A stretch of 64,000 nucleotides of DNA from Actinomycetota bacterium (lineage in GTDB: Bacteria; Actinomycetota; Acidimicrobiia; Acidimicrobiales; AC-14): assembly GCA_040754375.1 (NCBI GenBank), contig JBFMCT010000011.1:1384-65383 (forward strand), read 5' to 3'. This document shows, piece after piece, positions 15,295 to 34,280 of the stretch. Position numbers and translations under genes: made by a program. The number at the start of each line of letters is the position of its first letter. Within the stretch, counting starts at the first letter, position 1. The notes below the pieces were generated by a model. It ran no database searches. It was not told the origin of the DNA and worked only from the letters and a program-made list of their open reading frames with translations.

Positions 15295-16467
15295 TCATCT
15301 CCGCCGGTGGCCGGCGGGGTGGGATGTGACGGAGCCGTAGATCTCGAGGTGGCGGCGGGCGGTGGCCTCCCAGGTGAAGCGGGAGGCCACGCGGTGGCCG
15401 GCTCGGACGAGGCGGTGGCGTAGCTGGGCGTCGGTGGCGACGGCCCGCATGGCTCGGGCCAGGGCGCTCGGGTCGGCCGGGGGGACCAGCAGGGCGTCCT
15501 TCCCGTCGGTCAGGTACTCCCGGAAGACCGCTATGTCGGTGGCCACGACGGGCAGGCCCGCGCTCAATGCTTCGAGCACGACCAGGCCCCATCCCTCGTT
15601 CAGCGAGGGGAACACGAAAGCGTCGGCCACGCCGTACCAGTCGCCCAGCTCGTCGTCGTCCACGGTGCCCAGGAGCACCACGTCTCGGCCGAGCTCGAGG
15701 CCGAGGGGCCCGAGGCTGGCGAGGGCCGCCTCGCGGTAGGCCCGGTAGTCCTGGAAGGAGTGCCCGCCGACGATGGCCAGGACCGGCCTCGGGTCGAGGG
15801 CGTCGAGGGCGGCCAGGGCGGCCAGCAGGTGGGCACTGCCCTTGCGGGGCTCGATGCCGCCCACGGTGAGGAACACGAACCGGCCGTCGCCCGCCCCGAT
15901 CCGGTGGCGCAGGGCGGCCCGTCGACCGGCAGGGACGGGCGGGAACGGCCGGCCGTCGGCCCCGTTGTAGACGACCTCGGCGTCCACGCCGTAGCCGTCG
16001 CGCAGGAGCGTGCGCCAGTGCTCGCTCACCACCAAGGCCCGGTCGGGCTCGAGGATGGCCTGGTGCTGGCAGTCGATCAGCGCCTGGGTGGTGAAGTCGT
16101 CGACGTGATGGACGGTACGCACCACCGGCACCCCGGCACCGCCGTCGCGTACCCGGGCGGCGGCCCGCGCCGAGATGCAGTCCTGGGCGTGGAAGAGGTC
16201 GAAGTCGTCGGCGACGACCGAGAGGCCGGCAGCCAGGGAGGCCACCGACGCGAAGACCCGTTCCTCCAGGCTGGCCCCCTCGGCGGGCGGGCCCACGATC
16301 TTGACCGGGACAGCGACGGGCCTGAAGAACCCCGCACTGTCGCCCAGGGCGAGGACGGTCACGTCGGCCCCCAGGCGGTGGAGGGCCTCAGCCAGCCACA
16401 GGGTGTGGGCCACACCGCCGCGGGGCTTCACCGAGTACGTGACGAGGCCGATCCGCGGCCCGGTCAC
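15295..16467 (-). CDS. GT4-family glycosyltransferase (MSMEG_0565-like by context)
   Basis: GTG at 16467 overlaps the fdrA-like stop (GTGA). 390 aa with the GT-B C-terminal pattern FVFPSLNEGWGLVVLEALSAGLPVV. The listed ORF 15295..16905 has a spurious N-terminal extension. Confidence 0.8.
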   Translation of the reverse strand: MTGPRIGLVTYSVKPRGGVAHTLWLAEALHRLGADVTVLALGDSAGFFRPVAVPVKIVGPPAEGASLEERVFASVASLAAGLSVVADDFDLFHAQDCISARAAARVRDGGAGVPVVRTVHHVDDFTTQALIDCQHQAILEPDRALVVSEHWRTLLRDGYGVDAEVVYNGADGRPFPPVPAGRRAALRHRIGAGDGRFVFLTVGGIEPRKGSAHLLAALAALDALDPRPVLAIVGGHSFQDYRAYREAALASLGPLGLELGRDVVLLGTVDDDELGDWYGVADAFVFPSLNEGWGLVVLEALSAGLPVVATDIAVFREYLTDGKDALLVPPADPSALARAMRAVATDAQLRHRLVRAGHRVASRFTWEATARRHLEIYGSVTSHPAGHRRR

Positions 16468-18011
16468 AATGCAGCGGTGACGAGCTGAGGCTGGCGGGTG
16501 GCGATGGCGGCCGCGGCCAAGGAGGCCCGGGCGGCGGTGGGCGTGACCGTGCAGCCCGCCTCGGTAAGTTGGGCCCGCTGGCGCTCGAAGCCCTGAGGGT
16601 CGCCGTCGGTCCCCAGCACGTAGGCCACCACGCTCGGCCCGCCGCCGGCCATGATCTCCGCGCACGCAGGGGCCAGTTCGCCCGCCGGGTCGGGGTGGGA
16701 CCCGTACCCCAGCACGACGTCGATCAGGACCACGGCCACCTCCTCGTCCTGGCCCGCCTCCCTGATGAGCTCGAGGCGGGCCGCGGGGTCGATCATGGGA
16801 TGGGGGCGGCCCTTGGTGTACTCCTCCTCGCCCAGGTCGAGACAGACGTGGCTGCCGGTTGGCGCGGGCACCCGGTAGGCCTTGTCCAGCGGTGTGTTGG
16901 ACCAAACCGGGCCGATGTACCGCGACAGGACCGCCAGCGACTCGTAGCAGAGCGTCCCGCCCGAGAACAGGCCCCGCACGAGGGACCGGCCCGGGCCGAG
17001 GCGGGCGGCGGACCTCTCGACCGCCTCAGCCAGACCGGAGATCAGGTCGGGCACGTCGATGCCCAACAGGGTCAGGGCCCGCACCACCCCCTCCTCCAGC
17101 GTGCCTACGACGGCGACGCCCTCGGGTTGCCCGAACGCCGGTCCCAAACCGATGAGCGAGGCCACCAGCGGCGTGCCCCCGGCCAGGGCCACGACGTCGC
17201 GGGCGACGTGCTCGGAGGGCGGCTTCGACACCAGGAGGATGGCATCGGTGCCCGGGTCCTTGGCCATGGCCGACACGGCCAGCTTGGCCATGCGCCCGCC
17301 CACGGCATCGGTGAGGTCGCGGCCGCCGAGCCCGACTACCGAGGACACCCCCGCGCCCCAGCGGTCCAGCAGGCTCATGGCCTCCTGGGCGCCGGTGCCC
17401 GCGGCCGCGACCACACCGACCCGGCCCGGCTTGACCACGTTGGCAAAGCCCAGCCCTACGCCCCCGAGCAAGGCGGTGCCCGCCCCGGGGCCCATCACCA
17501 ACAGTCCCAGGTCGGTGGCCCGGTCCTTGAGCGCCACCTCGTCGGCCACCGGCACGTTGTCGCTGAACAGCAGCACGTGGAGGCCGGCAGAGAGGGCCTT
17601 GTGGGCTTCGAGGGCGGCGTAGTCTCCGGGAACGGACACCACGGCGACGTTCGTCGCGGCCTGGGCGGCCAGCGCCTCGCCGAGGGTACGGGGCCGGCGC
17701 TCGGCTTCCCGGTCGTGCTCCGCACCCCGGGGCTCGGCGAACAGCCTTTCCTCGGCGGCCGCCACGGCCGCGCCGGCACTGTCATCGTCGGTCGCCTCGA
17801 CGGCCACGAACAGATCGTCGGCCGAGACGCCGTCGAGGCCACCGGGCGAGAAGCCCCGCTCGACCAGGGTGGCGACGTTGGCCGGGGTGCCCATGGCCGC
17901 GGCCGCCCAGTCGACCCCCTCGACGTCGAGCATGGCCCGGGTGCCGGCCATCTGGAGCACGGAGTCGAGGTAGGTGCCCCCGAAGACCTTGACCAACCGG
18001 CTGGCCGTCAT
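16464..18011 (-). CDS. fdrA: FdrA-family protein (succinyl-CoA-synthetase-alpha-like CoA-ligase fold)
   Basis: 515 aa. Starts ..FGGTYLDSVLQM.. and continues NVAVVSVPGDYAALEAHKAL..GLHVLLFSDNVP..GLLVMGPGAGT..VGVVAAAGTGAQE, as in FdrA. ATG overlaps the carbamate kinase stop (ATGA at 18008-18011). Confidence 0.85.
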   Translation of the reverse strand: MTASRLVKVFGGTYLDSVLQMAGTRAMLDVEGVDWAAAAMGTPANVATLVERGFSPGGLDGVSADDLFVAVEATDDDSAGAAVAAAEERLFAEPRGAEHDREAERRPRTLGEALAAQAATNVAVVSVPGDYAALEAHKALSAGLHVLLFSDNVPVADEVALKDRATDLGLLVMGPGAGTALLGGVGLGFANVVKPGRVGVVAAAGTGAQEAMSLLDRWGAGVSSVVGLGGRDLTDAVGGRMAKLAVSAMAKDPGTDAILLVSKPPSEHVARDVVALAGGTPLVASLIGLGPAFGQPEGVAVVGTLEEGVVRALTLLGIDVPDLISGLAEAVERSAARLGPGRSLVRGLFSGGTLCYESLAVLSRYIGPVWSNTPLDKAYRVPAPTGSHVCLDLGEEEYTKGRPHPMIDPAARLELIREAGQDEEVAVVLIDVVLGYGSHPDPAGELAPACAEIMAGGGPSVVAYVLGTDGDPQGFERQRAQLTEAGCTVTPTAARASLAAAAIATRQPQLVTAAL

Positions 18012-18988
18012 GTCGACGCCACCAGCGGCTTGACCCGGACGATGTGGGTACCGCGCGGCCCCTCGATGTCCGAGACCGTTCCTTGGAGCGAGGCGTACAC
18101 CAGTTGGGGGGTGGTGATGACGGCTTCCTCACCGCCCCGGCGCAGGAACCGCACGGCGGCCCGGACCTTGGGGGCCATGCTGCCCTCGGGGAACTCGCCC
18201 CTCTCCAGCCACTGCTCGGCCTCGTCCACCGCCATCTCGTGGATGGCCCTCTGGTCGGGCTGGCCGTAGTGGAGCAGCACCGTCTCCACCCCCGTGACCA
18301 GCACCAGCGCCTCGGCGGCCAGGGAGGTGGCCAGGCGCTGGGCCGCGTAGTCCTTGTCGATCACGGCGTCGATGCCGCCGTAGCCGTCGTGGTAGCGCAC
18401 CACCGGCACCCCTCCCCCGCCGGCCGCCACCACCACCTGGCCCTGGTTGAGCAGGGCTCGGATGGCGTCGGTCTCGAGGATGGCGACGGGCTCGGGCGAG
18501 GGGACTACGCGCCGGTAACCACGGTCGGCGTCCTTGTTGACCACCCATCCCCGTTCGGCGGCCATCGTCTCGGCCTGCTCCTTGGTCAGGAAGGGGCCGA
18601 TGAACTTCGTCGGGTTCTCGAAGGCCGGGTCGTCGGGGTTCACGGCCACGTGGGTGACGATGGCTACCGCCCCCCGCATCCACGACGCGTCGGCCACCCG
18701 GCGAAGTGCCAGGCAGATGAGGCTGCCCAGCTGGCCTTCGGTCATGGCCCCCAGAGAGAACAGGGGCTGGGCCGGCACCAGCTTCTGGCCCTCCTCCTGC
18801 TGGATGGCGAGGTTGCCGACCTGGGGGCCGTTGCCGTGGACGAGGACCACGCGCCACCCGCTGCGCATGAGCGAGGACACGGCCTTGGCCATGGCCGTGG
18901 CGTTGGCCTCCAGCTCCTGGTGCGTTCCCTGCTGGCTCTCCCGGGTGAGGGCGTTGCCGCCCAGCGCCACCACGGCCGTCTTCGGCAT
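18008..18988 (-). CDS. arcC: carbamate kinase
   Basis: 326 aa. VVALGGNAL, VLVHGNGPQVGNL, RRVVPSPEP and VVAAGGGGVP motifs are typical of carbamate kinase. Confidence 0.9.
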   Translation of the reverse strand: MPKTAVVALGGNALTRESQQGTHQELEANATAMAKAVSSLMRSGWRVVLVHGNGPQVGNLAIQQEEGQKLVPAQPLFSLGAMTEGQLGSLICLALRRVADASWMRGAVAIVTHVAVNPDDPAFENPTKFIGPFLTKEQAETMAAERGWVVNKDADRGYRRVVPSPEPVAILETDAIRALLNQGQVVVAAGGGGVPVVRYHDGYGGIDAVIDKDYAAQRLATSLAAEALVLVTGVETVLLHYGQPDQRAIHEMAVDEAEQWLERGEFPEGSMAPKVRAAVRFLRRGGEEAVITTPQLVYASLQGTVSDIEGPRGTHIVRVKPLVAST

Positions 18989-19002
18989 CGGCCCTCCTCT
19001 GA

Positions 19003-19047
19003 TGGACGAGAGCGGGTGTAGAGGATGAGAAATTGTCGTCCATTATA
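19003..19047 (-). promoter_or_regulatory. candidate arcC-operon promoter: TATAAT box plus inverted repeat
   Basis: Minus-strand TATAAT at 19047-19042. Inverted repeat TGGACGA (19003-19009) / TCGTCCA (19036-19042). RBS agaggaggg before the ATG at 18988. AT-rich island in GC-rich DNA. Confidence 0.3.
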
Positions 19048-19064
19048 GTGTAGGGTAGGCGCCG

Positions 19065-19418
19065 ATGAGCGGCCCGCCGGCCCCGCCGGTCCCACCCAGC
19101 CCGTTCTCTGACCCCGAGGTGCCGGGCGAGGTCCTCTACCGGTGGTTCCAGGCCGAGGAGCGCCTCTACCCTGTGGCCATGGTGATGCCCGAGCGTTACC
19201 AGGAGGCCGTGCGCCTGGTCGGGCGGCTGGCCGAGCAGCTCCGGGCGTCCTGCCCTGACATCCCCAGCCTCGTCACGGCCGATGCCGAGGCCCGGGACGC
19301 AGCGCAACGGCTCGCCTCCCACGACCCGGCCATGGCCGAGGACCTCGACCTGTCCCTGGTGGCCGGCGCGGCATGCTCGATCCGCTACCGGGAGCTGGCC
19401 GCTCAGCGCCGGGGCTGA
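19065..19418 (+). CDS. hypothetical protein (117 aa), first gene of the radical-SAM/GNAT operon
   Basis: ORF with an ATG start that ends 3 nt before the next start. No motif recognised. Confidence 0.5.
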   Translation: MSGPPAPPVPPSPFSDPEVPGEVLYRWFQAEERLYPVAMVMPERYQEAVRLVGRLAEQLRASCPDIPSLVTADAEARDAAQRLASHDPAMAEDLDLSLVAGAACSIRYRELAAQRRG

Positions 19419-19421
19419 ACC

Positions 19422-20516
19422 GTGGACCTGGGCCACCTCATCACCGACCTGCAGAGCCGGGGCCTCCGTGTGGAGGCGCAGATGGAGGCCCGTCACGGCG
19501 GCGCCGGGCCCAGCGACTCGGGGATGCTGTGGATCGAAGGCGTGGCCGTGACCGTCCCGACCGACAACGCCCTCGCCCACGCCTCGCCTTATGTCCTGCG
19601 CCCCGAGGACGAGGGCTACGGCATCTACCGCGACGGTGAACGGCTGGCCGCCGCCACGGCCACGCCCCGGCCCCGCTACTACGACCTCTCGACGGCCGAC
19701 GGGACCCCGTACTGGAAGATCGCCCTGCTTCACCTCGACTCGCTGGCCAGCACCGTCTTGCAGACCTGCGCCTACTGGGGGAACTCCGACCAGTGCCAGT
19801 TCTGCGGTATCGGCCTGTCGTTGGACGGCCGGCGCACCATCGCCAAGAAGCGCCCCGAGCAGCTGGCCGAGGTGGCGGTGGCGGCCAAGGAGCTCGACGG
19901 CGCGGTCGACGCCACCCTGACCACCGGCAGCACCGCGGGGGCCGACAAGGGAGCGCTGTACGTGGCCACCTGCGGCGCGGCCGTCAAGGAGGCGGCCGGG
20001 CTACCGGTCGAGGTGCAGTTCGAGCCGCCCGACGACCTCGACGTGATCGACCGCGTCCACGACCTGGGGATCGACTCGGTGGGCATCCACGTCGAGTCGT
20101 TCGACCCCGTGGTGCTGGCCCGGGTGGCCCCGGCCAAGGCCCGCACCGGCATCGAGGGGTACTTCGCGGCCTGGGAGCGGGCGGTCAGCCTGTTCGGCGA
20201 GGGCCAGGTGTCGACCTATGTGATCCTCGGCATGGGGGAGGACGCCCAGCTCACCGTGGAGGGGTGCCGGCGGGCCATCGACGCGGGCGTCTACCCCTTC
20301 GTGGTCCCGTTGCGGCCCATCGCCGGCAGCCTGATGGGGGACTTCATGCCCCCCTCGGCCGAGTACACCGAGAGCATCTACCGGCGGGTGGTGCCCTACC
20401 TGCGGGAGCGGGGCCTGGACACCAAAGGCGTGGCTGCCGGGTGCGCCCGCTGCCAGGCGTGCTCGGCCATGGCCACCGTCGAGAAGCTCCTCACGATCAG
20501 CCCGTCGCGGTCTTGA
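19422..20516 (+). CDS. radical-SAM-like protein (MSMEG_0568/Sll0785-like by context)
   Basis: 364 aa. TIM-barrel-like pattern with a Cys triad C-x8-C-x2-C (CAYWGNSDQCQFC) and a C-terminal CARCQAC cluster. Followed directly by the GNAT gene, as in Nit1C clusters. Confidence 0.7.
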   Translation: MDLGHLITDLQSRGLRVEAQMEARHGGAGPSDSGMLWIEGVAVTVPTDNALAHASPYVLRPEDEGYGIYRDGERLAAATATPRPRYYDLSTADGTPYWKIALLHLDSLASTVLQTCAYWGNSDQCQFCGIGLSLDGRRTIAKKRPEQLAEVAVAAKELDGAVDATLTTGSTAGADKGALYVATCGAAVKEAAGLPVEVQFEPPDDLDVIDRVHDLGIDSVGIHVESFDPVVLARVAPAKARTGIEGYFAAWERAVSLFGEGQVSTYVILGMGEDAQLTVEGCRRAIDAGVYPFVVPLRPIAGSLMGDFMPPSAEYTESIYRRVVPYLRERGLDTKGVAAGCARCQACSAMATVEKLLTISPSRS

Positions 20517-20992
20517 GCACCGCCGCCGACGTCCGCAGCCGCCGTTCGTGCCGGATCGCCACCCGGCCCGACGAACTGGCCGTCCACTACGGGATCCGCC
20601 ACCGCGTGTTCGTGGAAGAACAGGGCCTGTTCGACGGCTCCGACATCGACAGTTGGGACGCGGTGGCGGGCGCCGTCCACGTCCTCGGCCTGTGGGACGA
20701 CGAGCCCGTCGGCGCCGTGCGCCTGTTCCCTCTCGACCCGTCCACCGACTTGTGGCAGGGCGACCGCCTGGCCGTGCTGGCCAGGTACCGGGTCCGCAAC
20801 CTGGGGATGCCCCTGGTCAAGTTCGCGGTGGCCACCGCCGCGGCCCGGGGTGGGCGGGAGATGGTGGCCCACGTCCAGCTACCGAACGTCGCCTTCTTCG
20901 AGCGCATCGGCTGGCACACCTACGGCGCGGTCGAGACCTACGTCGGGGTCGAGCACCAGCCCATGGCCATCGACCTCAGCCCGTACCGCTGA
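20513..20992 (+). CDS. GNAT N-acetyltransferase (MSMEG_0567/Sll0786-like by context)
   Basis: TTG at 20513 overlaps the previous stop (TTGA). 159 aa with HYGIRHRVFVEEQG.., VGAVRL.., GMPLVKFAVATAAARG, FFERIGW. Confidence 0.75.
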   Translation: MSTAADVRSRRSCRIATRPDELAVHYGIRHRVFVEEQGLFDGSDIDSWDAVAGAVHVLGLWDDEPVGAVRLFPLDPSTDLWQGDRLAVLARYRVRNLGMPLVKFAVATAAARGGREMVAHVQLPNVAFFERIGWHTYGAVETYVGVEHQPMAIDLSPYR

Positions 20993-21950
20993 GGCCCGTC
21001 ACCGGCTCGGCCGCGAGGTCGACCACGACGGCCGGACGGGCCCCGGCCGCGGTCACAGCCACCACGCCCGTGTCGTCGAGCGTCCCGATGACGGCCACCT
21101 CTATGGCCCGGTCGCGGAACGGCCGGGCGCATTCCTCCTCCCGCCCGGGTGGGACGCACAGCAGGAAGCCGTAGCAGGGGAACGCCAGGAGCCATGTGAC
21201 CAGGTCGGCCCCGGGCGGCCGCGGGACGGCCTCGAGGTCGATGGTGACTCCCAGGCCCTGGCACTCGACCAGCATGGCCGTGGAGCCGACGATGCCGGCC
21301 ATGCTCACGTCCTTGGCGGCCACGCACGCCCCTCGGTCGGCCACGTCGGCCAGGAGCCGGACGTCGGCCGCCAGCCGGTCGCCCCGCTCGGCGAAGGAGG
21401 CGAAGAAGGGGAAGTCTTCGCGCATGCGGCCCTCGGTAACGCACGCCAGCATCAGGCGTTGGCCGGCGGCCGCGTTGCGGACCGAGAGGACGCGGTTGGC
21501 CTCCCGTACCCGGCCCAACCCGAAAGCCGACACGGAGGCCGGCCCGTCGCGGACCGTGAGGTGCCCGCCCACCACGGGGACGTCGTAGAGCACCGAGGCG
21601 TGGCGCATGCCCTCCAGCACGGAGCGGGCCACGGGCTCGGGGGCCACCACCGTGTCCACGATGGCCAGCGGGACGGCGCCCATGGCCGCCAGGTCGTTGA
21701 CGTTGGCCAGCACGGCGGCGGCGCCCGCGCCGAACGGGTCGCGCGCCACGAATGCAGGCGCCATGGCCTCGCCGCCCACGGTGAGGACCAGGCCGCCGAC
21801 CTCCACCACCGCGCCGTCGTCGCCCGGCCCGTGGGCCCAGTCGGTGGCACCCAGGACCTCGGTGACGAGGCCGATGCCGGCCTTGTCCCGCAGGCCCGGA
21901 TGGGCCCGCAGGCGGGCGGCCACCGCCTCCACGTCCCATCGACCGGGCAT
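20976..21950 (-). CDS. AIR-synthase-related (PurM-superfamily) protein, Sll0787-like
   Basis: 324 aa. DDGAVV, AAAVLANVNDLAAMGAVPLAIVD, VPVVGGH and AKDVSMAGIVGS motifs of the PurM/ThiL/HypE fold. Its 3' end overlaps the convergent GNAT gene by 17 nt. Confidence 0.8.
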   Translation of the reverse strand: MPGRWDVEAVAARLRAHPGLRDKAGIGLVTEVLGATDWAHGPGDDGAVVEVGGLVLTVGGEAMAPAFVARDPFGAGAAAVLANVNDLAAMGAVPLAIVDTVVAPEPVARSVLEGMRHASVLYDVPVVGGHLTVRDGPASVSAFGLGRVREANRVLSVRNAAAGQRLMLACVTEGRMREDFPFFASFAERGDRLAADVRLLADVADRGACVAAKDVSMAGIVGSTAMLVECQGLGVTIDLEAVPRPPGADLVTWLLAFPCYGFLLCVPPGREEECARPFRDRAIEVAVIGTLDDTGVVAVTAAGARPAVVVDLAAEPVTGLSGTG

Positions 21951-21959
21951 CCCTCATCC

Positions 21960-21997: not shown

Positions 21998-22783
21998 ATG
22001 GGCCCACCGCCGTTCCGCCTGGACCTGCCTCCACGAGCGCCCCGACCCCGCCGGACGGGGCTCACCCACGTGCTCGACAAGGGTATGCCGGCGACCCAGC
22101 TGGCCGGCGTCCTGGAGTCGTGCGGGGCGTTCGTGGACGTGTGGAAGTTCGGCTGGGGCACGGCCTACGTCGACCCGCTGCTCGCCGGCAAGCTCGCCCT
22201 CCTGCGGGCCCACGACGTCCTCGGCTGCCTGGGGGGCACGCTCTTGGAGGTGGCCTGGGCACAAGGGCGGGCCGACGAGTACCTGGCCTGGGCCCGGGAG
22301 TTGGGCGTCCCGAGCGTGGAGGTCTCCCGCGGGGCCGTGCCTATGGGCGAGGACGACAAGGACCGGCTGATCCGCTCCGCGGTCGAAGCCGGGTTCGTCG
22401 TCCTGTCGGAGGTGGGCAGCAAGAGCGCCTCCTCCCAGCCTTTGCCCGACCAGTGGGGCAAGGAGGTGGAGCGCGACCTCGACGCCGGGGCCACCTGGGT
22501 CCTGGCCGAGGGGCGCGAGAGCGGGACGGTCGGCATCTACGACCACGCCGGGCGGGTACGAGAGGACGTCGTCGACGCCGTGGTGGACGCGGGCGGGGTG
22601 GGAAGGGTCGTGTTCGAGGCGCCCGCCAAGGACCAGCAGGCGTGGTTCATCCGCTGCTTCGGCTCGGACGTCAACCTGGCCAACGTCGCCCCTGCCGAGA
22701 TCCTCGGCCTGGAGACCCTGCGCCTGGGCCTGCGGGCGGACACCATCGGGCTGTCGCGGCCCCCGGCGGTGCGCCGGCGATGA
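21998..22783 (+). CDS. comA: (2R)-phospho-3-sulfolactate synthase (ComA) family protein
   Basis: 261 aa. It aligns along its length with my recollection of archaeal ComA: GLT.VLDKG.., D..KFGWGT, EVS.G, VLSEVG.K, DLDAGA..V..EGRESG, V.FEAP.K.QQ..FI..FG..VNLAN., LETLR.GLR.DT. Confidence 0.85.
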   Translation: MGPPPFRLDLPPRAPRPRRTGLTHVLDKGMPATQLAGVLESCGAFVDVWKFGWGTAYVDPLLAGKLALLRAHDVLGCLGGTLLEVAWAQGRADEYLAWARELGVPSVEVSRGAVPMGEDDKDRLIRSAVEAGFVVLSEVGSKSASSQPLPDQWGKEVERDLDAGATWVLAEGRESGTVGIYDHAGRVREDVVDAVVDAGGVGRVVFEAPAKDQQAWFIRCFGSDVNLANVAPAEILGLETLRLGLRADTIGLSRPPAVRRR

Positions 22784-23670
22784 ACACCGTCCCCGGCCAG
22801 TACCGGAAGGTCTCGGTCGCCCGGGTCGACGTTGCCCTCACCGTGGACGGCCTCACCGGCCACTTCCTGGGACGGGAGGTGTACCGCCACACCCGGTTCG
22901 TCGTGGTGCGCGACGGCCACGGCGCGACCGCGCTGGTCGAGGTGGACAAGCCGGCCCGCGGCGACCTGTTCTCTCCGGTGACGTCGGTGACCGTGCGGGC
23001 TCTGCCCGCCGACTGCGTGTACGTGGTCGCCCCCGACGCCGACACCGGCGTCCCCAGTGCGCTGGCGGCGGTGGCCCGCGACCAGGGCAACGGCGCTCGC
23101 TGCGTAGTGGTCGAGGGCCGCTACGACCACGTGAGCTTCATCCTCGACCCCGCCCCGGTGCGGGTGCGGGTGGGCGACGTCGTGCCGCCGATGCCGGCCA
23201 AGCTGGTCGACCAGGCCCGGCGGGTCCTCGACCTGGCCGAGGACCTGGCCCCTGTGGAGCTGGTGCCCGAGGTGGTGGACATGGCCGACCTGGCCCGGGC
23301 CGGCGGTCAGGGCCGGGCCGACCACTACCTGCTGCCGTGCCGGGCCTCGGGGTTCGAGCTCGACGGCGCCCAGGTCTCGTTCCTCGACGAGCGGCCGCCC
23401 CGGGCCGACTGGACGCTCATCGGCTGTGAACGGTCCCGTTCCATCCATCAGTGGTTCTACGGCGACCTGCCCGCCGGTCCCATCGAGACCTGCCCCCGCA
23501 AGCTCTTCACCGGTCCCGGCCCCCTGCTGACCAAGTGCTGCCTGCTGGAGAACGAGAACTGCACCGACGGCGACACCGTGGTGGTGCCCTGGGGCGCCTC
23601 GCTCGACCTGGTGCGCCAGGCCGTCACCGACCTGTCTAGGACCGGGGAGCCGGCGTGGGCGCCCGCCTGA
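22780..23670 (+). CDS. uncharacterised Cys-rich protein (296 aa)
   Basis: ATG at 22780 overlaps the comA-like stop (ATGA). C-terminal third carries LLPCRASG, LIGCERSRSIH, ETCPRK, LTKCCLLENENC. No family recognised. Confidence 0.6.
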   Translation: MNTVPGQYRKVSVARVDVALTVDGLTGHFLGREVYRHTRFVVVRDGHGATALVEVDKPARGDLFSPVTSVTVRALPADCVYVVAPDADTGVPSALAAVARDQGNGARCVVVEGRYDHVSFILDPAPVRVRVGDVVPPMPAKLVDQARRVLDLAEDLAPVELVPEVVDMADLARAGGQGRADHYLLPCRASGFELDGAQVSFLDERPPRADWTLIGCERSRSIHQWFYGDLPAGPIETCPRKLFTGPGPLLTKCCLLENENCTDGDTVVVPWGASLDLVRQAVTDLSRTGEPAWAPA

Positions 23671-25004
23671 GCGACTCCCGCCTGTACAGCCACCTGTGGG
23701 GCACCGACGAGCTGCGAGGGCTGTTCGACGAGGAGGCCCGGCTCCAGCGCTGGCTCGACATCGTCGCCGCCCTGGCCCGGGCCCAGGCCAAGCTCGGGAT
23801 CATCCCCGCGGCGTCGGCCGAGGAGATCACCCGCTCGGCCAGGGTGGAGCGCCTCGACCTGGACCTCGTGGCCGAGGAGACCCGCCGCACCTCGCACTCC
23901 ACCCTGGGGCTCATCCACGGCCTCCAGCGGGTGCTGCCCTCGCCCGCCCGCGACCACGTCTACGTCGGCACGACCGTGCAGGACGTCACCGATACGTGGA
24001 CGGCGCTGACGATGGCGGCCGTAGGACAGACCGTGTGGCGGGACCTGCGGGCCATCGAGGACCTGCTCATCGACCTGGCGGTGGCCCACCGGGGCACCCT
24101 GATGGTGGGGCGCACGCACGGCCAGCCCGGGGCGCCCATCACCTTCGGCTTCAAGGCGGCCTCATGGGCCGACGAGGTCCGCCGCCACCTGGCCCGCCTG
24201 GCCGACGCCAGGCCCCGGTGGCTGGTGGGCCAGCTCGGCGGCGCAGTGGGCGCCCTCGGGTTCTTCGGGGCCGACGGGCCGGCGCTGCGGGCCGCCTTCT
24301 GCGCCGAGCTCGGCCTCGGTGAACCGGCCATCTCGTGGTTGACCGCCCGCGACCGGGTAGCCGAGTTCGGCACTGTGCTGGCGATGGTGAGCTCGACCCT
24401 GGCCCGCATCGGCACCGAGGTCTACGAGCTCCAGCGGCCCGAGATCGGCGAGCTGCGCGAGCCCACGACAGCCTCGGCGGTGGGCAGCATCACCATGCCC
24501 CACAAGCGCAACCCCGAGGCCAGCGAGCACCTCGACACCCTCTCCCGACTGGTGCGGGCCAACGCCGGCGTGCTGCTCGACGGCATGGTCGGCGCCCACG
24601 AGCGAGACGGACGGGCGTGGAAGGCCGAGTGGGTGGCCTTTCCGGAGGTTTGCCTGCTCACCGGCTCGGCCCTCGCGGTCGCCATCGGGCTGCTGTCGGG
24701 GCTGGAGGTGGACGCCGAGGCCATGGCCACCCGGGCGTCGGCTGCGGAGTCGCGGGCCGGTTCGGAACGGGCCCTGTCCATCCTCACCCGGCGGCTGGGG
24801 CGAAACGAGGCCCAGGACGCCCTTCACCAGGCGCTGCAACCGGGTGCCCTCCACCCGCCCGACCTGGCCCAGGCCGGGCTCCTGACCGACGACGAACTGG
24901 GATCCCTGGCCGCCCCCGCCCTTGACGGCGCGCGGGCGATGGTGGACGAGGTGGTGGCGCGCGCCCGGGCCGCCCGCCGGGGCGAGCCTGAGATATGGGC
25001 GTGA
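23655..25004 (+). CDS. fumarate-lyase-superfamily enzyme, adenylosuccinate lyase / 3-carboxymuconate cycloisomerase-like
   Basis: 449 aa. GRTHGQPGAPITFG and the signature loop GSITMPHKRNPEASE. Confidence 0.8.
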   Translation: MGARLSDSRLYSHLWGTDELRGLFDEEARLQRWLDIVAALARAQAKLGIIPAASAEEITRSARVERLDLDLVAEETRRTSHSTLGLIHGLQRVLPSPARDHVYVGTTVQDVTDTWTALTMAAVGQTVWRDLRAIEDLLIDLAVAHRGTLMVGRTHGQPGAPITFGFKAASWADEVRRHLARLADARPRWLVGQLGGAVGALGFFGADGPALRAAFCAELGLGEPAISWLTARDRVAEFGTVLAMVSSTLARIGTEVYELQRPEIGELREPTTASAVGSITMPHKRNPEASEHLDTLSRLVRANAGVLLDGMVGAHERDGRAWKAEWVAFPEVCLLTGSALAVAIGLLSGLEVDAEAMATRASAAESRAGSERALSILTRRLGRNEAQDALHQALQPGALHPPDLAQAGLLTDDELGSLAAPALDGARAMVDEVVARARAARRGEPEIWA

Positions 25005-25996
25005 ACGGACCTCCCTGGGGTCGGTTGCCCCGGTTCCCCCTGGCCGCGCTCCCTACCCCCCTGGTGCGGGCCCGGCATCTGGAGGCCCGGGTCGCCCGCG
25101 GCCGGCGGGGCCCGATCGTCCTCGTCAAGCGCGACGACCTCAGCGGCTTCGCGGCCGCCGGCCACAAGGCCCGCCAGCTCGAGTACCTGGTGGGCGCGGC
25201 GCTGGCCGAGGGGTGCGACGTCCTGGTCACGGGCGGGGGGCCGAGCTCGAACTGGTGCCCGGCAGCCGCCGTGGCGGCCCGGGTGGCCGGCCTCGAATGC
25301 CAGCTGGTCTCGTTCGGCACCCGGCCCGAGCGCACCCATCCCAACCTGGCCGCCTCGCTGGCCAGCGGGGCCGAGGTCCGGTTCACGGGCGATCCCGACC
25401 GCGACAACTTGGAGGCGGCCATCGTGGCGGCCGCCGACGACCTGCGGGCTGCCGGCCGGCGCCCGTTCGCCGTGCCCCGGGGTGGTGCCAGCCCCCTCGG
25501 GGCCGTGGGCATGGTCGCGGCGGCCTACGAACTAGCCGTCCAGCTCGGCGACCTCGAGGCCACGGCCGTCGTGGTGGCCACCGGGTCGGGCGGGGCCTGC
25601 GCCGGGCTGGCCGCGGCCGGGCGCTTCCCGGTCGTCGGCGCCTCGGTCAGCCGTCCCCTCGACGAGGCCGCCGCCCAGGTCGGGCGGCTGGCCCAGGCCT
25701 CGGCGTCCCTGCTCGGCCTCCCGGCGCCCACCCCGCCGGAGCTGTTCGACGTGCGGGGGCCGGGCTTCGGCGTCGCCTCCGACGAGGGCGAGGCGGCCGC
25801 CACCGTCGCCCTCCACACCGAGGGGCTGCTGCTCGACCCGACGTACACGGCTAAGGCGTTCGCCCTCCTGCTCCGGCTGGCCGAGGCCGATGACGGCCAC
25901 CCGAGCCCGGGACCGCTGGTCTTCTGGCACACGGGCGGGCTGCTCTCGGCCGCCGACCACCTGGCGCGTACGGCCGCCGTGGGAGCCGGTGCATGA
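24995..25996 (+). CDS. PLP-dependent enzyme of the ACC deaminase / D-cysteine desulfhydrase / cysteate sulfo-lyase fold
   Basis: 333 aa. LPTPL, VKRDDLSG..AAGHKARQLEYL (Lys in the PLP position), ATGSGG, and LDPTYTAKA near the C-terminus. Confidence 0.75.
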   Translation: MGVNGPPWGRLPRFPLAALPTPLVRARHLEARVARGRRGPIVLVKRDDLSGFAAAGHKARQLEYLVGAALAEGCDVLVTGGGPSSNWCPAAAVAARVAGLECQLVSFGTRPERTHPNLAASLASGAEVRFTGDPDRDNLEAAIVAAADDLRAAGRRPFAVPRGGASPLGAVGMVAAAYELAVQLGDLEATAVVVATGSGGACAGLAAAGRFPVVGASVSRPLDEAAAQVGRLAQASASLLGLPAPTPPELFDVRGPGFGVASDEGEAAATVALHTEGLLLDPTYTAKAFALLLRLAEADDGHPSPGPLVFWHTGGLLSAADHLARTAAVGAGA

Positions 25997-27495
25997 GGAC
26001 CTTTGGCCCGGCCACGTCGGGTCCCGCCCCCGAACTGGTCGAGTCGGGTTTCGCCCTCGAGAACGCCGACGCCCCCCTTCTCCATCGTGGCCTCAACCTG
26101 GCCGACATGGCCCACGTCCTGGACCTGCGCAGCCAGCAAGTCATCCCCGACGACGCCGCCCGCCAGCTCCTCGGGCTGCTCCTCGAGGTCCACGAGATGC
26201 CGGCCGAGGAGTTCCCCTACGACCCGTCGTTCGGGGAGGCGTACAACTCCCGGGAACGGTACTTCGTCTCCCGTCTGGGCGACACGGCTGGCTGGCTGCA
26301 CGCCGGCCGGCCCCGGCGGGAGGCCACCCGGATCGCCCTGCGGCTACTGCTGCGCCGCCAGTTGGTCGAGGTGCTCGCCGACGCCGCCCGGCTGGCCGAC
26401 AGCATGGCCGATCAGGCGGCCGCCCACGTGGGCTCGGTGATGCCCGACCAGACCTACCTCCAGCAGGCCCAGCCGTCCACGTTCGGCCATTACATCCTCT
26501 CGTTCGCCTACCCGACCCTGCGCGACAGCCGGCGCCTGCTCGACGCCGTGTCCTGGGTGAACGCCAGCCCGGGCGGGGCCGGGTGTGTCAACGGCAGCCG
26601 GCTGTTGGCCGACCGGGAACTGCTGGCCGACCTGCTCGGGTTCGACGGCGTGATCGAACACACCCGCGACGCCATGTGGCAGGTCGACGGGCTCATCCAC
26701 ATCATGGGCACCACGGCCAGCATGCTCTCCAACCAGAGCAAGTTGGCCGAGGACCTGGAGATCTGGTCGAGCAGCGAGTTCGACTACGTGGACCTCGACC
26801 CTGGCTTCACCCGGGCCAGCGTGCTCATGCCCCAGAAGCGCAACCCGTACTCGCTGTCGATCGTGCGGGGTGCCCACGGCATCCTCATCGGGCGGCTGTC
26901 CGGCTTCCTGGCCGTGGTCAAGAGCCCCTCGGCCCGCAGCGACAACTTGATCTTCGCCTACGGCGAGGTCCCCCGGTCCCTCGATCTGGCCGCCCGCGTC
27001 ACCCGCCTGATGGGCGGGGTCGTCCGCACCTTGGCGGTCAACACCGACCGCATGGCCGATGCCCTGCGCGACGGGTTCACCCAGGCCACCGACCTGGCCG
27101 AACACATCGTCACGACCACCGGCATCGACTACCGCACGGCCTACCTGGTCGTGGGCCAGGCCGTGCGGGTGGCCAGCGCGGCCGGGCTGCGGGGGGTGGA
27201 CATCACGGGCGAGATGCTCGACCGGGCGGCCACGGACCTGCGGGGCCAGCCGCTGGGGCTGGCGGGCGCCGACCTCACCGACGTGCTCGACCCCCGCCAG
27301 ATCGTCGCCACCCGGTCCGCCCCGGGCGGGGCCGCGCCGTCGGCCGTCGAGGCCATGGTGGGCACGTGCCGGGCCGAGGCGGCCGAGGTCCTGGCCGAGG
27401 CCATGAGGCGCCAGGGGGACTTCGACCACGCCGAGGAGCTGCTCGTGGAACGGGCCGTGGCCGAGGCGCACGGCCGGCAGGAGGTTGCCCAGTGA
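25993..27495 (+). CDS. fumarate-lyase-superfamily enzyme, argininosuccinate lyase-like
   Basis: 500 aa. QTYLQQAQPSTFGH, and a signature loop ASVLMPQKRNPYS that deviates from GSSxMPxKxNP. ATG overlaps the previous stop (ATGA). Confidence 0.8.
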   Translation: MRTFGPATSGPAPELVESGFALENADAPLLHRGLNLADMAHVLDLRSQQVIPDDAARQLLGLLLEVHEMPAEEFPYDPSFGEAYNSRERYFVSRLGDTAGWLHAGRPRREATRIALRLLLRRQLVEVLADAARLADSMADQAAAHVGSVMPDQTYLQQAQPSTFGHYILSFAYPTLRDSRRLLDAVSWVNASPGGAGCVNGSRLLADRELLADLLGFDGVIEHTRDAMWQVDGLIHIMGTTASMLSNQSKLAEDLEIWSSSEFDYVDLDPGFTRASVLMPQKRNPYSLSIVRGAHGILIGRLSGFLAVVKSPSARSDNLIFAYGEVPRSLDLAARVTRLMGGVVRTLAVNTDRMADALRDGFTQATDLAEHIVTTTGIDYRTAYLVVGQAVRVASAAGLRGVDITGEMLDRAATDLRGQPLGLAGADLTDVLDPRQIVATRSAPGGAAPSAVEAMVGTCRAEAAEVLAEAMRRQGDFDHAEELLVERAVAEAHGRQEVAQ

Positions 27496-28895
27496 AGCTG
27501 CCCACCGACATCGAGGTTGTGAACGTCGGCCTCCCGCTGTTCGCCGACGCCGTCCGCCAGCAGGGCCGGCCGGTGGTGCAGGTCGACTGGCGCATCCCCG
27601 CGGGCGGGGACCTCGAACTGGTGGCCGCCCTGAGCCGGCTCTACGGCCGTCACGGGGCGGCCATCGACGAGGCCAATGCGGAGGTCGCCCGGCGGTTGGA
27701 CCAGGGTTCGCCCAAGTTGGTGGGCCTCGAGCGGGCACTCGACGTCCTGCCCGGTGTCGACGACCGAACGGTCATCCACTGCGGCCCGGCCATCGGCTGG
27801 ACCGACATGTGCGACCCCCTGCGCCGGTCGGTCCGGGCCGCGGTAATGGCCGAGGGGTGGGCGGCGACGCCCGCCGAGGTGGACGGGCTGATGGCGCGCC
27901 ACGGGGTACGGCTGGAGCCGGCCAACCACCACGGGGCCGTCGTGCCCATGGCCAGCGCCATCGGCCCTACCGCGCCGATGCTCGTCGTGGAGAACGAGGC
28001 CGGCGGTACCCGCGCCTTCTCGGCCCTCAACCAGGGCCCGGGTGAAGTGGCCTGGTTCGGGCGGGAGACTCCCGCGGCCGTGGACCGGCTGGTCTTCCTA
28101 CGGGAGGTGGCCGGTCCGCTGCTGGCCGAGTGCCTGCGCCACTCGGGGCCGCTCGACGTGTTCACCCTGGCGGCCCAGGGACTGCAGATGGGCGACGACC
28201 TGCACATGCGCACCCAGGCCACGACCAACCTGTTCGTGCGGGCCCTGCTGCCCCACCTGATGGGGCTCGAAGACCGGCGACGGGCCGACCTGGGCCGCTT
28301 CCTCTCCACCGACCACCTGTTCTTCCTGAACGTGGCCATGGCCGGGGCCAAGTCGCTCACCCTGTGGGCCGAACAGGTACAGGGATCGAGCGTGGTCACC
28401 ACCATGGCCCGCAACGGCACGACCTACGGGGTCCGCCTGCCAGGCTCGCAGCGTTGGTTCGTCACCGCCTCGCCGCCCATCGGCCAGGCCCTCTACTACC
28501 CCGGTTACGGTCCCGAGCACGGCGCCCCCGACATCGGCGACAGCGCCGTGCTGGAGCTGGTCGGCCTGGGCGGTTCGGCGGCCGCCGCCTCGCCCGCGGT
28601 GGCCGCCTTCGTCGGCGGCACCATGGCCGACGCCATCGCCTCGACCGAGGCCATGGACCACGTGTGCGTGGCCCGCAGCACCCGGTTCAAGCTGCCGTTG
28701 CTCGACTTCCGCGGCTCACCGGTGGCCGTCGACGTCCGCAAGGTGGTCGAACTGGGCATCACACCCAAGGTCAACACCGGCATCCTCCACGCCCACGACG
28801 GCTCCGGACAGGTCGGCGCGGGTGTGGCCGAGGCCCCCATCGCCTGCTTCCGCGAGGCGTTGCTGGACCTCGACCGCCGCCTGTCCTCGTCCTGA
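27492..28895 (+). CDS. DUF1116 (YlbE-like) protein
   Basis: GTG at 27492 overlaps the previous stop (GTGA). 467 aa resembling E. coli YlbE-type proteins that accompany FdrA. The listed ORF 25890..28895 has a 534-codon spurious extension. Confidence 0.7.
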   Translation: MKLPTDIEVVNVGLPLFADAVRQQGRPVVQVDWRIPAGGDLELVAALSRLYGRHGAAIDEANAEVARRLDQGSPKLVGLERALDVLPGVDDRTVIHCGPAIGWTDMCDPLRRSVRAAVMAEGWAATPAEVDGLMARHGVRLEPANHHGAVVPMASAIGPTAPMLVVENEAGGTRAFSALNQGPGEVAWFGRETPAAVDRLVFLREVAGPLLAECLRHSGPLDVFTLAAQGLQMGDDLHMRTQATTNLFVRALLPHLMGLEDRRRADLGRFLSTDHLFFLNVAMAGAKSLTLWAEQVQGSSVVTTMARNGTTYGVRLPGSQRWFVTASPPIGQALYYPGYGPEHGAPDIGDSAVLELVGLGGSAAAASPAVAAFVGGTMADAIASTEAMDHVCVARSTRFKLPLLDFRGSPVAVDVRKVVELGITPKVNTGILHAHDGSGQVGAGVAEAPIACFREALLDLDRRLSSS

Positions 28896-28905: not shown

Positions 28906-29718
28906 GTGCTCGAACTGGGCCTGGGCGCCCGAGAGGCGCTCTCGGTGCCCGGCACGGGCACCGTGATCGGGGCCTACACCAAGGCCGCCTACGTCCGGGT
29001 GCCGGGCGGGCTGTTCGCCCTCACCACACGCGACGTGGCCTCCGGTCCCCTGCACGCCCGCACCGACCTGCCCGTCGCGCGCCTCGGCGTGGGCGACCGG
29101 GTTGTGGTCACGCCGAGGCTGCTCCAGGCCGGGCCGCTCCTGTTCGACCTCCGGGCGGCCACCGTCTGGCGGGGCCGCCTCCCCCAGGTCGGCCCCCCGG
29201 GCCACGCCGGCACCGCCGGCCGCGGAGTCGACGTCCCGGGCCTGGCCCGCCGCCTGGGCGGGGCCGGTCCCGGGCTCACACCCGCGGGTGACGACGCCCT
29301 GGCCGGGGTCCTCCTCGTGGCCCGGCTCCACGGTGGTCAGCCGGCCGAGGAGGGCCTCGTGGGGATCGCGGCCGCCGTCCCCACCAACGACATCTCCCGG
29401 GCCTTCCTCGTTTGGGCGGCCCGGGGCCAGAGCACCGAGCCCGTCCACCAGTTCCTCCTGACCGGCGACCCCCACCACCTGGGCACCGTGCGGGCCATGG
29501 GGCACACCTCCGGAGCGGCCTTGGCTGACGGCCTCATGTACGCATTGCACGCTTTTGCAAGGCCCGTGCAACAGGACGTCGCAGGCTGCGGGGTACCAGC
29601 CGAACCCCGAGGAGGTCCCGCGTGGCCCGGACGATTCTCACTCTCCGCCCCACCACTGTCTGCCCGTGCTGGTTCGCCACCGCCGCCCCAGCCCACCACG
29701 ACCGGCTGGTCCGGGTGA
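28906..29718 (+). CDS. DUF2877 (YlbF-like) protein
   Basis: GTG at 28906. GPGLTPAGDDALAGVLLV motif as I recall for DUF2877. About 270 aa, like YlbF. Confidence 0.6.
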   Translation: MLELGLGAREALSVPGTGTVIGAYTKAAYVRVPGGLFALTTRDVASGPLHARTDLPVARLGVGDRVVVTPRLLQAGPLLFDLRAATVWRGRLPQVGPPGHAGTAGRGVDVPGLARRLGGAGPGLTPAGDDALAGVLLVARLHGGQPAEEGLVGIAAAVPTNDISRAFLVWAARGQSTEPVHQFLLTGDPHHLGTVRAMGHTSGAALADGLMYALHAFARPVQQDVAGCGVPAEPRGGPAWPGRFSLSAPPLSARAGSPPPPQPTTTGWSG

Positions 29719-29912
29719 CGACCGACCTGACCGCGACCCTGGACCTGGTGGAGATGGCCGTCACCTGGGCCGAGCTCGACTACAGCCACGAGGACGTCAT
29801 CCCGCCCCGGCGCTGGCTGGAGTTCGCGGCCGAGCACGAGTGGGAAGACCCCGACGTGGCCGAACGGCTCTTCAGCGCGGCCGCCGAGATCGCCCTCAGG
29901 CGGGCGGGTTGA
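29715..29912 (+). CDS. possible small acidic protein (65 aa)
   Basis: GTG at 29715 overlaps the previous stop (GTGA). ..VEMAVTWAELDYSHEDVIPPRRWLEFAAEHEWEDPDVAERLF... Its 3' end overlaps the convergent OsmC-like gene by 17 nt. Confidence 0.3.
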   Translation: MTTDLTATLDLVEMAVTWAELDYSHEDVIPPRRWLEFAAEHEWEDPDVAERLFSAAAEIALRRAG

Positions 29913-30348: not shown

Positions 30349-30709
30349 GATCGTGACCGTGCCCGCCGGCATGATCGTGACCGGCCGGGCGCTCGGCCAG
30401 CTCACCGGCCCGGGCCTCCAGCTCACCGGCGCCCACGACGCCCCTGCCGGCCAACACCCGCTCCAGGGCGGTGAGCCAGCAGCGGTAGTAGCTCCAGCAC
30501 TCGTCGCCCTCGCGCTCCCAACCGCCGACGGCGGCGATGAGCTCACGACGGAAGTCCTCCCAGTCGATGGTCCCGGCGTCGTGGAGGGCCATGGCCAGCC
30601 CGAACGCCCGGCTCTCCCACGGGGCCGCGAAGACCAGCTCGCCGTTGCTCCGGGGGGGCGCCCCCGGCCCCTCGATGTCCAGCACCGCGCCCGGCGACGG
30701 GACAGTCAT
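30305..30709 (-). CDS. nitrile hydratase accessory (activator) protein with C-terminal His-rich tail
   Basis: ATG at 30709 overlaps the alpha stop (ATGA). 134 aa. [18 protein letters not shown].. resembles the beta-subunit-like NHase activators. Tail is [24 protein letters not shown]. Confidence 0.75.
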
Positions 30710-34195: not shown

Positions 34196-34280
34196 CTGCC
34201 CCCCGTCTCCTACCGCATGGACGATCCGGCTCTGACGTTTACTATACTGGACGTCGTTGGTAATGGCGTCAAGGAGGCCT

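Follow-up and report, generated by a model that had tools for sequence, protein, structure and literature searches.

A conserved bacterial gene cluster combines a split, predicted AllFGH-type transcarbamylase with Nit1C and coenzyme M genes

The locus and its two arms

This work concerns the genes for a carbamate kinase and for three subunits of a predicted transcarbamylase, FdrA (AllF), AllG and AllH, in a stretch of 64,000 nucleotides from an Actinomycetota bacterium (GenBank assembly GCA_040754375.1, contig JBFMCT010000011.1, positions 1,384 to 65,383), referred to below as the window. The four genes are divided between the two arms of a cluster of ~20 kb and ~22 genes (15295-34925), whose coordinates are collected in Table 1. 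An earlier reading of the same DNA, termed here the original prediction, had placed the four genes around a group of radical-SAM, GNAT, AIRS, ComA and lyase genes. These core genes are indeed present, but their identity as a Nit1C/gpr-type set and a complete XcbABCDE set for coenzyme M (CoM) synthesis had been overlooked, as had the extension of the cluster to ~34.9 kb. The conserved ~20-kb supercluster, in which genes for CoM biosynthesis and Nit1C genes occur together with a split, predicted transcarbamylase and its kinase, is a larger finding than the one first made.

Genes were called by third-position GC, the window having a G+C content of ~72%. On the left arm, the kinase, FdrA-like and glycosyltransferase genes follow one another from 18988 down to 15295 and form one tightly packed operon. 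The kinase is 40% identical to E. coli YbcF/AllK and scores 342 bits against the arcC model TIGR00746 (cutoff 358). Along its full length (residues 12-503), the FdrA-like protein shares 37% identity with E. coli AllF. Its best match in the PDB is E. coli FdrA (3DMY, 7e-71), compared with 1.6e-16 for the succinyl-CoA synthetase alpha subunit, which argues against a grouping with unrelated CoA ligases. The domain PF27530 (HMA_AllF_N) is matched in the FdrA of a 99%-identical metagenome relative. The C-terminal tail of ~50 amino acids found in E. coli AllF is absent from the window protein.

The TGA of the kinase gene overlaps the ATG of the FdrA-like gene as ATGA (18011-18008; reverse complement GTCGAC-ATGA-CGG), and the TGA of the FdrA-like gene overlaps the GTG of the glycosyltransferase gene as GTGA (16467-16464; reverse complement CATT-GTGA-CCGG). 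Both overlaps had been reported in the original prediction. The frame switch in third-position GC coincides exactly with both junctions, and independent gene calls on the 99%-identical metagenome contig give identical products (390, 515 and 326 amino acids) with identical 4-nt overlaps. Since overlaps of 4 nt are the norm in this cluster, where 10 of the 12 same-strand junctions overlap by coordinates, the two overlaps are by themselves unremarkable. What exceeds chance is the conservation of the overlaps in other genomes, and the conserved split itself.

The AllG and AllH genes (27492-29718) are located 9.5 kb from the FdrA and kinase genes, at the end of an operon on the opposite strand. Their assignment to DUF1116 and DUF2877, as first proposed, agrees with matches to PF06545 (221 bits) and PF11392 (59 bits). 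The AllG-like protein is 37% identical to E. coli AllG and matches PDB entry 3CLQ at 4e-78. AllH is the least conserved subunit and shares 35% identity with its E. coli counterpart across ~100 residues. Its start is likely the GTG at 28906, 10 nt past the AllG stop, rather than 28822, because homologues align only from there. The homologues cover ~75-80% of the AllH-like protein, and its Pro-rich last ~50 residues lie outside their alignments. For all four proteins, the profile hidden Markov model (HMM) scores and the identities to E. coli proteins support the AllF, AllG, AllH and AllK family assignments originally made.

Conservation of the split layout

The layout in other genomes was compared with XcbA, the central gene of the cluster, as the anchor. 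The protein collection contains more than 2,000 XcbA relatives, for the most part encoded in metagenome-assembled genomes (MAGs) of Actinomycetota and Acidimicrobiales, and a scan of one genome per species returned 180 stretches that encode one. The best 80 of these 180 stretches, taken with 10-kb flanks, were searched by tblastn with the window proteins. A recurrent gene order emerges, in which the glycosyltransferase, FdrA and kinase genes point leftward and the genes for a 117-amino-acid protein, the radical SAM protein and the GNAT protein point rightward. These are followed by the leftward AIR-synthase-like gene and by rightward XcbB, XcbA, XcbD, XcbE, XcbC, AllG and, where present, AllH.

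FdrA is found on the left arm and AllG on the right arm in 39 of the 45 loci that span both arms. Five more of the 45 (L003, L019, L040 and L043 among them) have the right arm alone within 10 kb, with no glycosyltransferase-FdrA-kinase genes, radical SAM or GNAT genes there, and the single apparent exception, L065, has a frameshifted AllG. In each of 42 loci, FdrA and AllG are encoded on opposite strands; their median distance is 9.9 kb, and they are contiguous in none. The bracketing of the core by the quartet, as originally predicted, is thus repeated in dozens of genomes, where the same core is flanked by the split genes. The layout has been observed in Acidimicrobiia, Nocardioidaceae, Streptosporangiaceae, Jiangellaceae and the cultured Leekyejoonella antrihumi, as well as in MAGs of Dormibacterota, Chloroflexia and Gemmatimonadota. 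The carriers belong to at least four phyla and are mostly uncultured Actinomycetota of soil and groundwater; the cultured carrier, L. antrihumi C5-26, makes experiments feasible.

The junctions are conserved to different degrees. The overlap is kept at the kinase/FdrA junction in 34-36 of 48 loci, at the FdrA/glycosyltransferase junction in 38-44 of 49 and at the XcbC/AllG junction in 23-44 of 53. FdrA adjoins the glycosyltransferase in all 49 loci, including L059, where the kinase gene has been relocated, and L065 and L076, which lack it. Contexts outside the supercluster were sought through AllH homologues (44-48% identity), and the three places checked all proved to be the same supercluster.

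The presence of AllH does not co-vary with that of nitrile hydratase (2x2 table 9/16/8/15). An obligatory route from the hydratase to the transcarbamylase is therefore not favoured. A scan of the open reading frames (ORFs) of clusters lacking both nitrile hydratase and AllH gave nothing consistent. Two such clusters are flanked by Amidohydro_2 genes (L076, 2026-2877; L029, 19970-20815), whose products may be alternative accessory enzymes. In some other relatives, AllH is followed by a hypothetical gene of ~104 amino acids and a DJ-1/PfpI gene (L086, 10778-11803; L087, 10806-11770), neither of which was identified in the window.

FdrA and AllG as one enzyme

Residues 2-50 of the AllG-like protein (27492-27650) are homologous to the tail of E. 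coli AllF (residues 506-554) and not to E. coli AllG, as judged with NCBIfam models and BLASTP. In the related loci, a profile of this segment matched 60 ORFs for AllG and none for FdrA, and it matched the E. coli AllF tail at 2e-11. The linker segment is carried by AllG in 60 of 62 related loci and by AllF in E. coli.

With a limit of E <= 0.001, a search of 1.84 billion representative proteins with AllG returned 2,744 relatives. The best 150 were inspected, and 12 of these are FdrA-AllG fusions of ~950-1095 amino acids (CoA_binding + Ligase_CoA + AllG) with the order FdrA, linker, AllG, the linker being equivalent to residues 2-50 of the window AllG. Another 12 of the 150 are stand-alone AllG proteins that bear the segment, as in the window, and 62 are AllG proteins that lack it, as in E. 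coli. Given the fusions elsewhere and the relocated linker, the two distant halves almost certainly make up a single enzyme, connected to the kinase via carbamoyl phosphate. The system is a classic Rosetta-stone case, in which FdrA and AllG form one polypeptide in some lineages, are adjacent genes in E. coli and lie ~10 kb apart here, and the boundary between the two genes has shifted from one lineage to another.

Across the related loci, identities to the window proteins are correlated among FdrA, AllG and the kinase with r = 0.90-0.92, compared with 0.75-0.85 against other cluster genes. This correlated divergence lends weak but consistent support to one enzyme. AllF, AllG and AllH of E. coli co-purify (PMC11326118). 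From these lines of evidence we infer a single enzyme assembled from FdrA and AllG, joined by AllH in the loci that encode it.

The bracketed core and the remaining genes

The CoM set is complete, with XcbB, XcbA, XcbD, XcbE and XcbC in this order (21998-27495). The best NCBIfam match is the corresponding Xcb model for XcbA, XcbC, XcbD and XcbE and arch_ComA for XcbB, and six cysteines are invariant in the alignment of the XcbA family. This bacterial route to CoM has been described for Xanthobacter (PMC9457059). Neither an alkene monooxygenase nor an epoxyalkane:CoM transferase gene was found anywhere in the window. The AIR-synthase-like gene is the sole minus-strand gene in the rightward block, an orientation kept in the related loci, and its 3' end overlaps that of the GNAT gene convergently by 17 bp (20976-20992). 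Its product matches HypE weakly (25 bits) and lacks the C-terminal cysteine tail of HypE.

Table 1. Genes and other features of the cluster in the window
Feature	Position	Strand	Evidence
GT4 glycosyltransferase, MSMEG_0565 (Nit1C/gpr-associated) family	15295..16467	-	390 amino acids; Pfam Glycos_transf_1 4.6e-32; TIGR04047 371 bits (cutoff 260)
FdrA/AllF-like subunit (CoA_binding + Ligase_CoA)	16464..18011	-	515 amino acids; NF004760 400 bits (cutoff 433)
Carbamate kinase (AllK/ArcC-like), first gene of leftward operon	18008..18988	-	326 amino acids; PRK12352 302 bits (cutoff 266)
Divergent intergenic region, 76 bp	18989..19064		promoter-like motif TCGTCCATTATAGTGTAGG; 8-bp inverted repeat ATGGACGA/TCGTCCAT
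Conserved 117-amino-acid protein, first gene of rightward operon	19065..19418	+	no family match (Pfam, NCBIfam)
Radical SAM, MSMEG_0568 family (Nit1C NitD type)	19422..20516	+	TIGR04043 388 bits (cutoff 304)
GNAT acetyltransferase, MSMEG_0567/Sll0786 family	20513..20992	+	TIGR04045 110 bits (cutoff 68)
AIR-synthase-like (PurM superfamily), sll0787-like	20976..21950	-	Pfam AIRS + AIRS_C; TIGR04049 best, 257 bits (cutoff 321)
XcbB/ComA phosphosulfolactate synthase	21998..22783	+	Pfam ComA 3.5e-82; TIGR03849 (arch_ComA) 249 bits
XcbA family (DUF7714)	22780..23670	+	PF24830 1.9e-89; NF052538 (subfamily model) 337 bits (cutoff 150)
XcbD-like, 3-sulfopropionylcysteine synthase type, aspartase/fumarase superfamily	23655..25004	+	NF052536 587 bits (cutoff 600)
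XcbE-like pyridoxal phosphate enzyme	24995..25996	+	NF052537 best, 235 bits (cutoff 450)
XcbC-like, argininosuccinate-lyase fold, predicted phosphate elimination to sulfoacrylate	25993..27495	+	NF052535 434 bits (cutoff 575)
AllG/DUF1116-like subunit	27492..28895	+	PF06545 221 bits (cutoff 27); GTG start overlaps XcbC stop by 4 nt
AllH/DUF2877-like subunit	28906..29718	+	PF11392 59 bits (cutoff 25)
OsmC/Ohr-like protein	29896..30348	-	Pfam OsmC 1.1e-18; conserved in 40 loci
Nitrile hydratase accessory protein	30305..30709	-	TIGR03889 69 bits (cutoff 46)
Nitrile hydratase alpha, Co-type (VCTLCSC)	30706..31305	-	TIGR01323 303 bits (cutoff 250)
Nitrile hydratase beta	31302..31967	-	TIGR03888 189 bits (cutoff 152)
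MSMEG_0572/Sll0783 family (DsrE-like), counterpart of Nit1C ORF1/NitB	32052..32540	-	TIGR04044 207 bits (cutoff 110)
Conserved ORF of ~104 amino acids	32541..32855	-	no Pfam/NCBIfam family match
Pyridine-nucleotide-disulfide oxidoreductase, CoA-disulfide-reductase-like	32858..34195	-	TIGR03385 best, 246 bits (below cutoff); conserved in 34 loci
PuuR-like helix-turn-helix + cupin regulator, right-hand cluster limit	34263..34925	+	Pfam HTH_3 + Cupin_2; NF007408 73 bits; 26 related loci

The two operons diverge from the short intergenic region, in which the arms of the inverted repeat are located at 19002-19009 (ATGGACGA) and 19037-19044 (TCGTCCAT). A conserved motif emerged only when the intergenic regions of the related loci were compared. 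Most related loci keep the motif ending in CATCATAGTGTAGG, or xATAGTnnAC, upstream of the first rightward gene; in the window the motif reads CGTCCATTATAGTGTAGG, and its core xATAGTnnA is kept ~15 nt upstream of that gene across distant phyla. The motif probably represents a -10 element accompanied by an operator, and the leader would be very short. A scan of the region with the sigma-70 consensus found no promoter, and no obvious GlnR box was seen there by eye. The 117-amino-acid protein encoded by the first rightward gene is present in 53 related loci, as detected by an iterative HMM.

At the right end of the cluster, the ORF of ~104 amino acids has tblastn matches in 34 related loci, every time between the flavoprotein and DsrE-like genes. 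No amidase gene lies near the nitrile hydratase genes. The PuuR-like regulator is kept in relatives, whereas none of the related loci has the LnmK, BNR, methyltransferase or helicase genes that flank the cluster in the window, so the conserved unit spans approximately 15295-34925. A BNR/Asp-box repeat protein of 532 amino acids (13664-15262), encoded directly to the left of the glycosyltransferase, is not kept beside the cluster in relatives. Also outside the cluster are an LnmK-family bifunctional acyltransferase/decarboxylase with a large BTAD + AAA_16 regulator (34926-39107) and a 917-amino-acid TPR-CHAT protein beside a sigma-70-like gene (44467-47220). Ordinary chromosomal genes fill the rest of the window, among them genes for leucine biosynthesis and for a tRNA synthetase, and greA. 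Pfam and NCBIfam scans of the window ORFs found no allantoin, ureidoglycolate or oxalurate genes (allB/C/D/E), and no scanned ORF matched CN_hydrolase, the nitrilase family.

Proposed function and alternatives

The favoured explanation is that FdrA, AllG and AllH with the kinase constitute a full AllFGH-type transcarbamylase and carbamate kinase which work in the carbamoyl-phosphate-releasing direction as an integral part of the supercluster. We put the probability of this reading at roughly 0.55. The four genes are integral, co-inherited members of the supercluster and not a stray allantoin module. FdrA/AllG, with AllH where present, would interconvert a cluster-specific X-C(O)NH2 and carbamoyl phosphate, and the kinase would interconvert carbamoyl phosphate and ATP + NH3 + CO2. 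In the phosphorolytic direction, which is favoured speculatively, X-C(O)NH2 and Pi would yield XH and carbamoyl phosphate, from which the kinase would form ATP together with assimilable NH3 and CO2. As part of the same speculation, X-C(O)NH2 might arise from X-C#N through the nitrile hydratase, X being for example a thiol sulfur or an amide nitrogen, and the Xcb genes might make CoM or a close sulfonate for use as a carrier or as the substrate, much as in alkene clusters. This scheme, which leads from nitrile hydration through phosphorolysis to the kinase, is coherent and would explain the absence of an amidase.

Allantoin-derived oxalurate is an unlikely substrate, since no gene able to make it is present. 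The AllFGH family is known to remove, by phosphorolysis, a carbamoyl group from an amide nitrogen that neighbours an anionic group, which makes a sulfonated amide or thiol of the Xcb branch an attractive candidate. The releasing direction is favoured with modest confidence because allFGHK sets are so far known only from catabolic contexts (PMC11326118, PMC12625717). It is further favoured by the Nit1C/gpr relatives, which are induced by nitrogen starvation and required for the assimilation of cyanide nitrogen (PMC6039565, PMC7815647), and by the occurrence of xcb genes elsewhere beside a pathway that uses CoM as a carrier, with a CoA-disulfide-reductase (CoADR)-like gene (PMC8727900). The original prediction had proposed a carbamoylated, ureido- or oxalurate-like intermediate with recovery of ATP. 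On the evidence of the families and the fusions, a step linked to carbamoyl phosphate is still the best reading; the ureido- or oxalurate-like nature of the intermediate and the ATP-yielding direction are more conjectural, and the window is devoid of allantoin and oxalurate genes. The wider view, in which a widespread and undescribed pathway uses a CoM or sulfonate thiol, Nit1C enzymes and the split AllF/AllG to move a carbamoyl or cyano C-N unit on or off a carrier, is offered tentatively.

Several observations weigh against the releasing transcarbamylase. The kinase gene is missing beside FdrA in two loci (L065, L076). No AllH could be detected in 23 of the 48 related clusters (for example L013, L029, L045, L069 and L076), where there is often no space for it after AllG; the original prediction had all four genes of the quartet right for the window, and the absence of AllH from about half of the related clusters had escaped it. 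Of 48 loci with adequate coverage, just 17 encode nitrile hydratase, which therefore cannot be an obligatory step. The scores of FdrA, XcbC, XcbD, XcbE and the AIR-synthase-like protein lie below the NCBIfam equivalog cutoffs, and their exact functions may differ from their names. The correlated divergence of FdrA, AllG and the kinase could reflect similar evolutionary rates and not interaction. The AIR-synthase-like, radical SAM, GNAT and glycosyltransferase proteins of the core have no role in the catabolic scheme and look more biosynthetic.

The core genes also allow an anabolic alternative, to which we give a minor share of the probability. Here, the kinase would make carbamoyl phosphate, FdrA/AllG would carbamoylate a thiol or amide, and the AIR-synthase-like enzyme would dehydrate the product to a cyano group with ATP, in parallel to the HypF/HypE chemistry of hydrogenase maturation. 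This would give rise to a nitrile, a thiocyanate or a cyanamide-type compound, on which the radical SAM, GNAT and glycosyltransferase proteins would act further and which nitrile hydratase would recycle or detoxify. Such a route would need the core genes only, as the kinase, FdrA, AllG and AIR-synthase-like genes occur in nearly all loci and nitrile hydratase is accessory. The cluster also has a complete biosynthetic pathway in addition to the glycosyltransferase, GNAT and radical SAM genes, and the adjacency of FdrA and the glycosyltransferase in 49 of 49 loci points the same way. A biosynthetic role has also been proposed for Nit1C (PMC7815647). Nevertheless, the AIR-synthase-like protein has only the weak match to HypE described above and no C-terminal cysteine tail, carbamate kinases are usually catabolic, as is every characterised allFGHK context (PMC11326118, PMC12625717), and a nitrogen-containing product fits poorly with the induction of Nit1C relatives by nitrogen starvation (PMC6039565).

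A ligase-type activity of FdrA/AllG, acting as an acyl-CoA or acyl-phosphate ligase on a sulfonated acid, in line with the older annotation of FdrA, unconnected with carbamoyl groups and beside a generic neighbouring kinase, is improbable. The CoA_binding and Ligase_CoA domains do resemble the succinyl-CoA synthetase alpha subunit, the score of FdrA is just under the NCBIfam FdrA cutoff, AllH is often absent and two loci have no kinase. Yet the kinase adjoins FdrA in 48 loci, mostly with an overlapping stop and start, as in E. coli allFGHK, and the FdrA sequence matches E. coli FdrA (7e-71) far better than it does succinyl-CoA synthetase (1.6e-16). Transcarbamylation is, moreover, the only experimentally defined activity of the combination of FdrA, DUF1116 and DUF2877 (PMC11326118). 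Least probable is an ordinary module of oxalurate (allantoin/purine) catabolism of the E. coli kind, with no tie to the genes around it. The identity of all four proteins to AllF, AllG, AllH and AllK (35-40%) would be compatible with it, but the window has no allantoin or ureidoglycolate genes, the All genes are never contiguous and are embedded in the same Xcb/Nit1C core in 39 of 45 genomes across phyla, and they share operons with the glycosyltransferase and XcbC via conserved 4-nt overlaps.

If the wider view of a pathway that moves a C-N unit on or off a carrier is correct, the cluster would provide a second substrate class for the AllFGH family, identified as a transcarbamylase only in 2024, and a first chemical handle on the 20-year-old puzzle of Nit1C. 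The function of Nit1C/gpr has been obscure since 2005, and a variant that combines synthesis of a sulfonate thiol, carbamoyl-phosphate transfer and nitrile hydration would offer testable substrates. The conserved split, the natural fusions, the mobile linker and the frequent absence of AllH bear on how the transcarbamylase is built and on other substrates it may have. Bacterial CoM genes have been described mainly in organisms that metabolise alkenes, epoxides and vinyl chloride, and the full Xcb set is found here in a different context.

Comparison with known systems

In E. coli, fdrA-ylbE-ylbF-ybcF are contiguous. In agreement with the original prediction, they encode the oxamic transcarbamylase AllFGH, which interconverts oxalurate + Pi and oxamate + carbamoyl phosphate, and the carbamate kinase AllK (PMC11326118, PMC9843812). 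All four families are represented in the window, at identities of 37%, 37%, 35% (partial) and 40%, respectively, and in both systems the kinase gene directly adjoins that of the FdrA subunit. The differences lie in the layout and the surroundings. The single operon of E. coli is replaced by genes 9.5 kb apart on opposite strands, the context of allantoin genes is absent, and the tail of ~50 amino acids borne by E. coli AllF sits on AllG in the window. E. coli needs AllH, but roughly half of the related clusters lack it or can do without it. Unlike in E. coli, the window FdrA shares its operon with a glycosyltransferase, and the substrate is presumably different.

An allFGHK set has also been reported in comammox Nitrospira and ammonia-oxidising archaea, where it is collocated with biuret and triuret ureide hydrolases (PMC12625717). 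The nitrifier and window sets are alike in that the AllFGH and kinase module has been recruited outside the allantoin operons of enterobacteria. In the nitrifiers, however, the four genes stand together, whereas those of the window are split among sulfonate and Nit1C genes.

Another likeness, as an analogy of working only, is to HypF and HypE, which carry out carbamoyl-phosphate-to-thiocyanate chemistry in hydrogenase maturation. A carbamoyl phosphate supply, carbamoyl transfer, an ATP-dependent enzyme of the PurM superfamily and nearby nitrile-handling enzymes may be common to both. On the other hand, no HypF homologue is present, and the AIR-synthase-like protein is distant from HypE and has no C-terminal Cys.

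With Nit1C/gpr (Synechocystis sll0783-0787, Pseudomonas nitA-H, M. smegmatis MSMEG_0565-0572), the window appears to have five gene families in common. Four of them score above cutoff, namely the MSMEG_0572 DsrE-like, MSMEG_0568 radical SAM, MSMEG_0567-type GNAT and MSMEG_0565 glycosyltransferase families, while the sll0787-like AIR-synthase protein, a candidate fifth, is below it (257 compared with 321 bits). Canonical Nit1C is defined by its nitrilase (PMC1199592, PMC7815647). The window, in contrast, lacks the Nit6803/sll0784-type nitrilase and has a Co-type nitrile hydratase instead, which is present in only about a third of the relatives. Its flavoprotein is CoADR-like (246 bits), the MSMEG_0569 family not being among the best 25 matches. 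Canonical Nit1C is also without XcbABCDE and the FdrA/AllG/AllH/kinase genes, both of which are added in the window cluster (PMC1199592, PMC7815647).

Counterparts of the five XcbABCDE genes of Xanthobacter autotrophicus Py2 are all present and adjacent in the window, although the scores of XcbC and XcbE are well under the equivalog cutoffs. In alkene and vinyl chloride clusters, xcb genes lie beside CoM-using catabolic genes and a CoADR-like gene (PMC8727900), and, as in the etn clusters (PMC8727900), a CoADR-like gene accompanies the window xcb genes. Unlike in these degraders, the window Xcb genes occur in a Nit1C/All context that is widespread in uncultured Actinomycetota. A full-text search, with most subscription journals outside its reach, found no paper that combines these modules. 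Known parts are thus brought together here in an undescribed and widely conserved combination, which implies a new substrate.

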